Source: Escherichia phage EF1-1
Sequence record: PQ571289
Reading direction: 5' to 3' (one strand)
DNA: 64,000 nt
Each line of letters starts with the position of its first letter. Position 1 is the first letter of the stretch. The notes beneath the pieces are model-generated. The model was not told the origin of the DNA. It did no database searches and worked only from the letters and a program-made list of their open reading frames with translations. A program made the translations under genes and the position numbers. Shown here piece by piece: positions 27,218-27,698 of the stretch.

Positions 27218-27469
27218 TCTAGCCTCCTAAACGCGTCTCTGACGCACTTTTTATATATAAGATGATAAATCACCTTACCTAGTAAGTAAACTTGCTCTAC
27301 GAGCCTCTTATGAAGCTTATGTTATAAGCTATACTATTGCTACCTGTTTAAGCAAGGTTTTGCACACAGAAAATAATTTTTAATAAAACTCTTGACTTTT
27401 ATGTTCGAAGTATGCTACCCTAGAAATCTATTAACGAGCGCAGCGAGTTAAGGTTTTAGGTTGTTGATG

Positions 27470-27683
27470 TAGTACTCTGTACTCAAGTACTGTACTCCGT
27501 ACTAGATTAATAATTATTAAATATTAATAATAAATAATTATTAGATCTAACAAACAGGTACAGTGTATCAGAACTGGTACGTACAGATCAACTTCTATCA
27601 ATTAAAAAATAAAATAATAAATTATTATAAATAATACTTGATCTATAAATCAGTATGAAGTACAGTACGTAACATCTTAACAA
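27470..27683. repeat. GTAC-containing repeat blocks alternating with pure A/T tracts
   Basis: GTACT five times in 27470-27505; GTAC clusters at 27553-27590 and 27651-27683; A/T-only tracts 27507-27548 and 27596-27640, each followed by GATCTA. Confidence 0.6.
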
Positions 27684-27698
27684 GAATGGAGGTGTGCA

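Follow-up and report, generated by a model that had tools for sequence, protein, structure and literature searches.

The stretch of DNA analysed here, 64,000 nucleotides of Escherichia phage EF1-1 (record PQ571289; the whole of it is called the window below), contains at positions 27218-27698 a 481-bp non-coding gap between two sets of genes that run away from each other. The nearest of these lie at 26894-27217 on the minus strand and at 27699-27884 on the plus strand, which agrees with the separation of leftward and rightward modules proposed in a preliminary description of the sequence; beyond them, leftward early and replication genes occupy one side, and small rightward open reading frames (ORFs), 11 tRNA genes (28677-30586, the same as in phage phAPEC8), lysis genes and the terminase occupy the other. 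Judged by its matches, the window is Phapecoctavirus DNA (phAPEC8-like myoviruses of the Stephanstirmvirinae): 62 phage records match the 4 kb around the gap over at least 80% of the length at 96-97% identity, all of them from phAPEC8-like E. coli myoviruses. On balance, we believe from sequence and comparison that the gap is probably the early-transcription hub of this phage, in which tracts composed only of A and T would serve as upstream elements of outward-facing promoters, and not an origin of replication driven by repeats. The features on which this reading is built are collected in Table 1.

Table 1. Features of the gap in the window, followed by the promoter-like pairs that take the places of P2L and P2 in related phages.
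Feature	Position	Strand	Description	Basis
PL	27262..27290	-	Promoter-like site nearest the leftward gene: -35 TTTACT (27290 to 27285), 17-nt spacer, -10 TATCAT (27267 to 27262)	Consensus scan, predicted
DnaA-box-like word	27358..27366	+	TTTTGCACA, single	Regular-expression scan, weak evidence
P1	27392..27421	+	Distal rightward promoter: -35 TTGACT 27392-27397, 18-nt spacer with extended -10 TGc 27413-27415, -10 TACCCT 27416-27421	Comparison, predicted
P1 leader hairpin	27431..27451	+	TTAAC-GA-GC-GCA-GC-GA-GTTAA	Covariation and minimum free energy (MFE) fold
GTAC block 1	27472..27503	.	Five GTACT, including two 12-mers GTACTC(T/C)GTACT 20 bp apart	Word and repeat scans
A/T tract 1	27506..27543	.	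38 nt, near-perfect palindrome (27508-27525 / 27526-27543)	Run, repeat and palindrome scans
Putative copy of P2 spacer and -10	27544..27564	+	GATCTA and TACAGT (27559-27564); AATTAT in the place of the -35, where TTGACT would be expected	Read against phi92 P2
P2L	27562..27591	-	Predicted leftward promoter, left of tract 2: -35 TTGATC (27591 to 27586), 18-nt spacer, -10 TACACT (27567 to 27562); contains GTAC block 2	Promoter scan
A/T tract 2	27600..27636	.	37 nt, most of the 46 bp between the P2L and P2 -35 hexamers	Run scan and promoter scan
P2	27638..27666	+	Proximal rightward promoter: -35 TTGATC 27638-27643, 17-nt spacer, -10 TACAGT 27661-27666; GTAC block 3 overlaps the -10	Promoter scan
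Start of first rightward ORF (61 aa)	27688..27701	+	Ribosome-binding site GGAGG 27688-27692, ATG 27699	Sequence and ORF calls
P2L equivalents			phiWec188 TTGATC-18-TACTAT; phi92 and contig L030 TTGTTA-17-TAGTAT; Kp phi1_175008 and contig L055 TTGATT-17-TATAGT; Tr1 TTGTAA-17-TAGTAT	
P2 orthologous sites			phi92 and phiWec188 TTGACT-17/18-TAGAGT; Kp phi1 and L055 TTGACC/TTGATC-17-TACACT; Tr1 TTGACC-17-TAGTAT	

Predicted outward-facing promoters around a conserved A/T tract

Relatives further off within the subfamily were located through homologues of the leftward gene 26894-27217, and the DNA upstream of these homologues was then read in phiWec188, phi92, Klebsiella phage phi1_175008 (Kp phi1) and Citrobacter phage Tr1. 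Although the rightward gene is a different one in phi92, phi1_175008 and Tr1 (prs, NAMPT), the non-coding layout is the same: P1 comes first, followed 8-17 nt on by a box of the form (C/A)CGAGCG(N1-3)AGCGAG, then by a variable spacer with GATCT words, a single A/T tract, P2 directly after the tract, and finally the ribosome-binding site and ATG. Across the lineages P2 reads TTGAC(T/C) or TTGATC, 17 or 18 nt, and then TAGAGT, TACACT, TAGTAT or TACAGT, and P1 keeps the pattern TTGAC(A/T)-17/18-(A/G)TGCTACCCTAA in all four relatives; at the far left of the gap, the PL block GGTAAGGTGATT..ATCAT is present also in phiWec188 and phi92. In a systematic scan, outward-facing promoter-like pairs were found on both flanks of the tract in seven of the seven sequences examined, with hexamers that change while the consensus is kept, against a background for such sites of about one per 766 nt of strand, or about 2% per 15-nt slot. 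Hexamers of the sigma-70 type, 16-18 bp apart and retaining TTG and TAnnnT, were found for P1, P2 and P2L in the window and in five lineages. The half of the preliminary description that proposed control of divergent promoters is supported by this comparison, five lineages showing an A/T tract between outward sigma-70-like promoters as well as an upstream P1.

The tract shared by all of these sequences is tract 2. In the window it covers positions -40 to -60 of both P2 and P2L, and an A/T tract of about 35-49 nt stands at the same place in all relatives examined. At rrnB P1 and at phage early promoters, UP elements at -40 to -60 are bound by the alpha subunits of the E. coli RNA polymerase, and A/T-rich DNA at about this position was found at tract 2 for P2 and P2L, in the relatives, and also at 35826-35856. 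Because of the position and conservation of tract 2, and because this third A/T run also abuts a promoter, the tracts look like upstream promoter elements of the UP type. Both tracts named in the preliminary description are present, with lengths of 38 and 37 nt instead of 42 and 45; similarly, both of the GATCTA words said to follow them are there (starting at 27544 and 27640), the second being set off from tract 2 by an intervening CTT. This second GATCTA belongs to the TTGATC -35 of P2, and its mirror image, GATCAA at 27586-27591, is the -35 of P2L.

Tracts 1 and 2 are the longest A/T-only runs in the window, where 38-nt segments of at least 90% A+T amount to 0.08% and are confined to the two tracts and a third place, 35823-35868. 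A close relative, ESCO5, has no A/T-only run as long as 24 nt in its other 85 kb, and taken together these results make tracts 1 and 2 the two longest such runs of a genome of roughly 150 kb. Small duplications and deletions shift their lengths, by -3 nt in phAPEC8, by +12 nt in BI-EHEC, and to 47-49 nt in two phi92-like contigs (L029, L030); since the lengths vary in this way, selection seems to act on A/T richness rather than on exact sequence.

The third longest run, 35826-35856 (31 nt, A/T-only), overlaps the stop codon of a 521-aa ORF in the structural genes and is directly followed by CTA-TTGACA-17-TAGACT, in a 'CTATTGAC' context like that of P2 in phi92 and Kp phi1. The segment 35826-35895 is a strong candidate for an internal promoter ahead of the next ORF (35925) within the structural gene block, and other sigma-70-like sites in the window share the form (A/T-rich)-CTA-TTGAC(A/T).

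An apparent second, degenerate cassette in Phapecoctavirus

The GTACT block and tract 1 occur only in Phapecoctavirus proper. The position of tract 1 is not A/T-only in the four other lineages, and identity to phiWec188 is 43% over 27456-27550, as against 87% over P1 and the hairpin box. The flanks of tract 1 are nonetheless recognisable when they are read against P2 of phi92 (TTGACT-TTAGATCTATCTGTATG-TAGAGT): on the right, TTAGATCTA-N8-GTACAGT matches TTGACT-TTAGATCTA-N7-GTAGAGT of phi92 P2, with AATTAT replacing the -35, and on the left, GTACTCTGTACT...TAGATT matches ATACTCTATACT...TAGATT, which is the spacer of phi92 P2L. In phi92 itself, ATACTCTATACT adjoins that phage's own A/T tract, where the window has GTAC block 1. 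The simplest reading of these matches is that tract 1 and the GTACT block are a degenerate duplicate of the promoter cassette, both -35 hexamers having been lost in the upstream copy, and the alternation of GTAC blocks and A/T tracts would then exist because the cassette was duplicated. The 55-nt 'repeat_region' features in the public records of nepoznato, anhysbys and tuntematon correspond to the arms of the resulting inverted repeat, and their annotation could be reinterpreted in terms of such a duplicated cassette.

The P1 promoter class and its leader hairpin

The leader of P1 contains a structured hairpin, which is supported by compensatory changes in its base pairs. It is made up of an outer stem, tandem G.A/A.G pairs, two G-C pairs and a GNA (or 4-5 nt) loop, and in 14 instances the core CGAGC-G(N1-3)A-GCGAG is invariant while the outer stem covaries. 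Across these instances 74.6% of cells pair, as against 64.4% in shuffled controls, with a covariation score of 0.347 against 0.161; none of 500 shuffles reached the observed covariation score, and slid controls paired at 29-48%. The covarying pairs are 4-24 (UA 6, CG 4, UG 2, AU 1, GU 1, none unpaired) and 6-22 (CG 6, AU 4, UA 1). The hairpin is also the MFE fold of 27426-27456, its energy being unremarkable at -4.3 kcal/mol. Viral contigs were searched with the promoter and only the 5' half of the box as requirements; all matches in the promoter context also carried the 3' half, as against about 38 chance matches that lacked it.

A covariance model finds three copies of the hairpin per Phapecoctavirus genome, at 27429-27453 of the window and, in ESCO5 (NC_047776.2), at 13795-13820 and at about 132.1 kb. 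Each copy stands behind a TTGACT-17-...TACCCTAA promoter (class pattern TTGACT-17-(A/G)TG(C/G)TACCCTAA), the combined promoter and hairpin spanning about 13795-13860 and about 132091-132131 of ESCO5, both on the minus strand, and one phi92-like genome (L030, L058, L155) likewise has three such copies. Because promoter and hairpin recur together three times per genome, P1 belongs, as far as these matches go, to a promoter class marked by a conserved 5' hairpin, with at least three copies per genome in two genera. The copy at 13.8 kb in ESCO5 runs antisense to annotated genes, and just 3' of the hairpin in the gap (27447-27460) there is a repeat, TTAAGGTTT(T), of which UP17 has an extra copy and anhysbys three.

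By analogy with known leaders, the hairpin could stabilise the transcript or be recognised by a phage factor, as nut and put sites are. It resembles lambda nut boxB, the HK022 put sites and the stabilising hairpin of the ompA leader in being short, conserved, located in the first 25 nt or so, tied to one promoter class and present several times per genome; it differs in its CGAGC-GNA-GCGAG make-up with tandem G.A pairs, and no N-like protein is known here. A role at the DNA level is also possible, because the GCGNAGC core is a very stable DNA mini-hairpin as well.

GTAC words are rare in the genome and concentrated in the gap

The repeat pattern is real and non-random. As the preliminary description had it, five GTACT fall within 36 bp (starts at 27472, 27479, 27487, 27492 and 27499), and second and third clusters follow, with GTAC starting at 27558, 27577 and 27581 in block 2 and at 27660 and 27665 in block 3. 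Ten of the 65 GTAC words in the window thus lie within 197 bp (Poisson P about 7e-14 per 220-bp segment), whereas the next densest 220 bp hold five, and the density in the hub is some 55-60 times that of the rest of the window. At the same time, GTAC is the most depleted of the 4-nt palindromes in the window, with 65 observed against 190 expected (observed/expected ratio, O/E, 0.34). The ratio is 0.34 for Phapecoctavirus, 0.56 for phiWec/PsgM04F (a small sample), and 0.76-0.82 for phi92-like, Kp-like and Tr1 DNA; among the lineages compared, the one with the strongest depletion is the sole one with the cluster. The GTACT block was not found in phiWec188, phi92, Klebsiella phi1_175008 or Citrobacter Tr1, and not one of the ten GTAC words is kept beyond Phapecoctavirus proper, the relatives having ATAC, TTAG, CTCT or similar words in their place. 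Within the hub, GTAC overlaps the -10 of P2 and abuts that of P2L, and three of the four GTACAGT in the window are in the gap region. We consider the GTAC blocks best explained as the -10, spacer and flank sequences of promoter cassettes that are GTAC-rich in this lineage only, and not as iterons. Coding DNA at 6247-6445 holds a second, smaller cluster, with five sites (including GGTACGGTACC) in 200 bp.

Miscalls confined to one motif are the usual sign of a modified base in nanopore sequence, and the BI-EHEC record shows such a pattern. It apparently lacks nine of the ten hub sites, and in a comparison of OL505078.1 (27570-77500) with window positions 1-49700, 24 of 43 alignable GTAC sites (56%) are altered, most of them by G>A or C>T and thus to ATAC or GTAT; the median over all 4-mers is 7%. 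True evolutionary loss of GTAC in this phage was considered and rejected, because the assembly is nanopore-only (Guppy 4.0.11, Flye, Medaka; PMC8686590) and basecalling error at a modified motif is the most likely cause, which would imply many sequence errors in the public record. Because of these motif-specific miscalls, GTAC is probably base-modified in virion DNA. The phage encodes three DNA methyltransferase-like proteins, two with an NPPF motif (adenine-type) and one of C5 type; Pfam gave no match for them, and the PHROG matches of these proteins and of the ORFs flanking the gap are only to 'DNA methyltransferase' or to families of unknown function. A tie between the C5-type enzyme and the GTAC cluster is unsupported: the family is widespread, and its member in phiWec188, which is without the cluster, is 93% identical.

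Alternative explanations

The preliminary description offered iterons next to the unwinding elements of a replication origin as one interpretation. A/T-rich DNA of the kind that such an origin unwinds is present, in the form of the two longest A/T-only runs of the genome, and like lambda ori, P1 oriR and the plasmid Rep origins the gap has short repeats adjoining an A/T-rich tract. Those origins, however, have iterons of 17-22 bp, and a search for at least three direct repeats of about 17-22 bp in helical phase found no tandem array here, only 5-nt words at irregular spacings of 7, 8, 5 and 7 nt, the longest repeated unit among the GTAC repeats being a 12-mer that occurs twice. Comparison with related genomes, a check that the description itself proposed, points the same way, as the GTAC blocks are absent from all four relatives that keep the architecture, and no gene next to the repeats can be recognised as an initiator (for the flanking ORFs Pfam gave nothing and PHROGs only families of unknown function). 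The main rival to a promoter hub is instead a transcription-activated origin, in which P2L or P1 would fire into tract 1 or tract 2 as a DNA unwinding element and the transcript or the opened duplex would prime leading-strand synthesis, as at T4 ori(uvsY) and ori(34) or the T7 primary origin, so that the hub would be promoter region and origin in one; we regard this as unlikely. What can be cited for it is limited: besides the extreme A/T runs, the palindromic tract 1 begins some 12 nt beyond the predicted start of P2L and 75-78 nt or so beyond P1, the cumulative GC-skew minimum is at 26-28 kb, a DnaA-box-like word is present at 27358, and the replication genes, with a family A polymerase and a primase-helicase, form a T7-like set. 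In geometry, P2L or P1 pointing into tract 1, an A/T-only stretch of about 40 bp, would fit the pattern of T4 oriF/oriG and the T7 primary origin. In every lineage, however, tract 2 stands exactly at the UP position of two outward promoters, so that the conserved tract is upstream and not downstream of them, and tract 1, being lineage-specific, cannot be an ancestral origin. A similar tract, moreover, precedes an ordinary promoter within the structural genes, and an initiator gene and iterons are as much missed here as in the iteron model. The GC-skew switch coincides with the coding-strand switch, a coincidence for which the authors of the rV5 genome also judged skew uninformative (PMC3606486). 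The DnaA-like word is single in the gap (nine occur in the whole window) and, although conserved in phiWec188, was not seen in phi92; pattern scans for IHF, Fis and oriC 13-mer sites found none in the region, and the literature yielded no transcript or origin mapping for this phage group.

Two further explanations assign the work to the GTAC blocks themselves. In one, a GTAC-specific protein of the phage or the host (methyltransferase or regulator) would recognise or modify the clustered words, and their occupancy or modification would gate the promoters with overlapping -10 elements, giving an operator or an epigenetic timing switch added in Phapecoctavirus. The concentration of an otherwise avoided word, its weaker avoidance in the cluster-free relatives, its replacement by other words there, its overlap with the -10 of P2 and its position next to that of P2L, the two 12-mers set on the same helix face, the BI-EHEC miscalls and the three methyltransferase-like proteins can all be cited in its favour. 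Yet none of those three proteins can be assigned to GTAC, the C5-type enzyme is 93% identical in the cluster-free phiWec188, and no GTAC-binding protein or GTAC-specific methyltransferase was identified; single GTAC sites are missing in phAPEC8 and anhysbys, the 5-8 nt spacings are unlike those of a typical operator, and duplication of a cassette with a GTACAGT -10 could have produced the blocks as a neutral side effect. We therefore consider a working role of this kind improbable, and its most specific form, in which ten modified GTAC words are a phage-encoded epigenetic timer of early transcription or origin firing, more doubtful still. If such a timer did exist, modification (full on incoming DNA, hemi- or unmodified on new DNA) or occupancy by the enzyme would switch the -10 regions or the adjacent unwinding tract, and it would account for a word that is purged elsewhere being concentrated in the hub. 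In the other explanation, the inverted GTAC blocks and the palindromic A/U tract would fold into a long imperfect hairpin in a read-through transcript from P1 (or P2L), and RNase III would process this hairpin, or the hairpin would affect transcript stability, upstream of the first ORF and the tRNA array. The P1 leader, 27428-27700, does fold at -57.4 kcal/mol (z = -3.1 against shuffles), with block 1 predicted to pair with block 3 and tract 1 with itself, and the inverted-repeat arms are 27487-27542 and 27613-27668; these arms, however, show only 71% complementarity and consist mostly of A/U, the flanks gave no significant result when tested for a gapless palindrome (P = 0.28), the blocks are absent from relatives, and Rfam gives no match at E <= 1. 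An RNA element of this sort strikes us as very improbable.

A hub for early transcription is the reading we prefer, and several points weigh against it too. P2 and P2L reach only 8/12 against consensus, below the threshold of the consensus scanner, and no transcript 5' ends or in vitro data for this phage group were found in the searchable literature. Pure A/T over 37-38 nt exceeds what a UP element needs, and the duplicated copy, having no recognisable -35, may serve another purpose; tract 1, for example, lies just downstream of the predicted P2L start, as it would in an origin made of a promoter and an unwinding element. Nor does a hub account for the concentration of GTAC, a word that is threefold depleted genome-wide and whose cluster is found in this lineage alone.

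A model of the hub and its parallels

In the model that we favour, host sigma-70 RNA polymerase would read the hub from at least four promoters. Tract 2 would be a shared UP-type element, acting through alpha-subunit contact or bending, for the back-to-back P2L and P2, whose -35 hexamers (both TTGATC) are 46 bp apart and so leave approximately the room for two UP elements; P2L would fire leftward, and P2 rightward into the first ORF and the tRNA array. P1, some 245 bp upstream of P2, would be a stronger promoter of a special class whose transcript starts with the conserved hairpin. Because P1 faces P2L, the two promoters probably interfere with each other, and in Phapecoctavirus proper a partly degenerate second cassette (GTACT block, tract 1, GATCTA and TACAGT) would lie between them.

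So understood, the hub is mostly an ordinary, somewhat elaborated case of the familiar phage early promoter hub with UP-like tracts. Like rrnB P1 and the early promoters of T4, T5 and T7 (A1), it has a sigma-70 hexamer pair and, at about -40 to -60, a tract of A and T only, and tandem promoters precede stable-RNA genes, here tRNAs; it differs in that one 37-nt tract apparently serves two divergent promoters, in the duplication of the tract and in the weak hexamers. The compact arrangement of divergent and convergent promoters bordering two modules recalls the 186 pR/pL, P2 Pe/Pc and lambda PR/PRM switches, although the phage here is virulent, no repressor gene or operator was identified, and interference is only plausible. 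Both the P2 and the P2L -35 contain a Dam site, and GATC falls within P2 in five of six other sequences examined; this GATC, together with the adenine-methyltransferase-like genes, brings to mind the Dam-sensitive promoters IS10 pIN, Mu mom and P1 cre, though here GATC has no genome-wide enrichment (O/E 0.93).

Phages like phAPEC8 and phi92 are widely used in therapy cocktails. The comparison supplies concrete, if predicted, promoter coordinates for a hub that would drive both early gene modules and the tRNA array, and the P1 class, with three leader hairpins per genome, offers a candidate handle on early-gene regulation. It also flags GTAC as a strongly avoided and probably modified word. Two loose ends are left: the pile-up of GTAC in a phage that avoids and probably modifies it, and the conserved P1 leader hairpin.

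Other readings and variation among records

Several other identities for parts of the gap were considered and rejected. An 80-bp palindrome centred on tract 1 was not upheld, only the tract itself being palindromic, and the search of Rfam gave no known RNA family. The word TATAAATA inside tract 2 suggested a T4-type late promoter, but it has only six copies on both strands of the window, without pattern. A genome end or terminal repeat, suggested by the 'repeat_region' features and by a break in the nieznany record, was likewise dismissed: the features are the 55-nt inverted-repeat arms, BME3 has its 342-bp terminal repeat elsewhere, in non-coding DNA of 3 kb that is unrelated and matches nothing in the window, and in phiWec188, whose authors report genomes ending in terminal repeats, the hub is 64 kb from the record ends. 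The nieznany record (NC_052659.1) is opened inside the gap with about 170 nt repeated at both ends, which is best read as an assembly overlap. In the EP57 record (OR544956.1) two segments are missing, 27646-27683 (P2 -10 to ribosome-binding site) and 27311-27330; these deletions and the nieznany break look like assembly effects at repeats.

Within Phapecoctavirus, conservation of the gap (96.7-98.5%) equals that of the genes on either side (95-99.7%), and phage SKA64 is 99.8% identical over its 481 bp. To its left in phAPEC8, leftward small ORFs run to the DNA ligase gene, and to its right lie three small rightward ORFs, the tRNA array, the spanin gene and the large terminase gene. In the phiWec/PsgM04F clade an extra leftward ORF of 70 aa stands between PL and P1 (2073-2285 of the phiWec188 sequence, L005; also L011 and L012), which shows the hub to be tolerant of gene insertion on its left side. 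Between P1 and P2L, phi92 (L014) and Citrobacter Tr1 (L016) share a nearly identical 27-nt block, GATCTAACAGAC(A/T)ACTGAGT(A/T)GTCTA, a possible operator in those genera, of which the window retains only the remnant GATCTAACAAAC.

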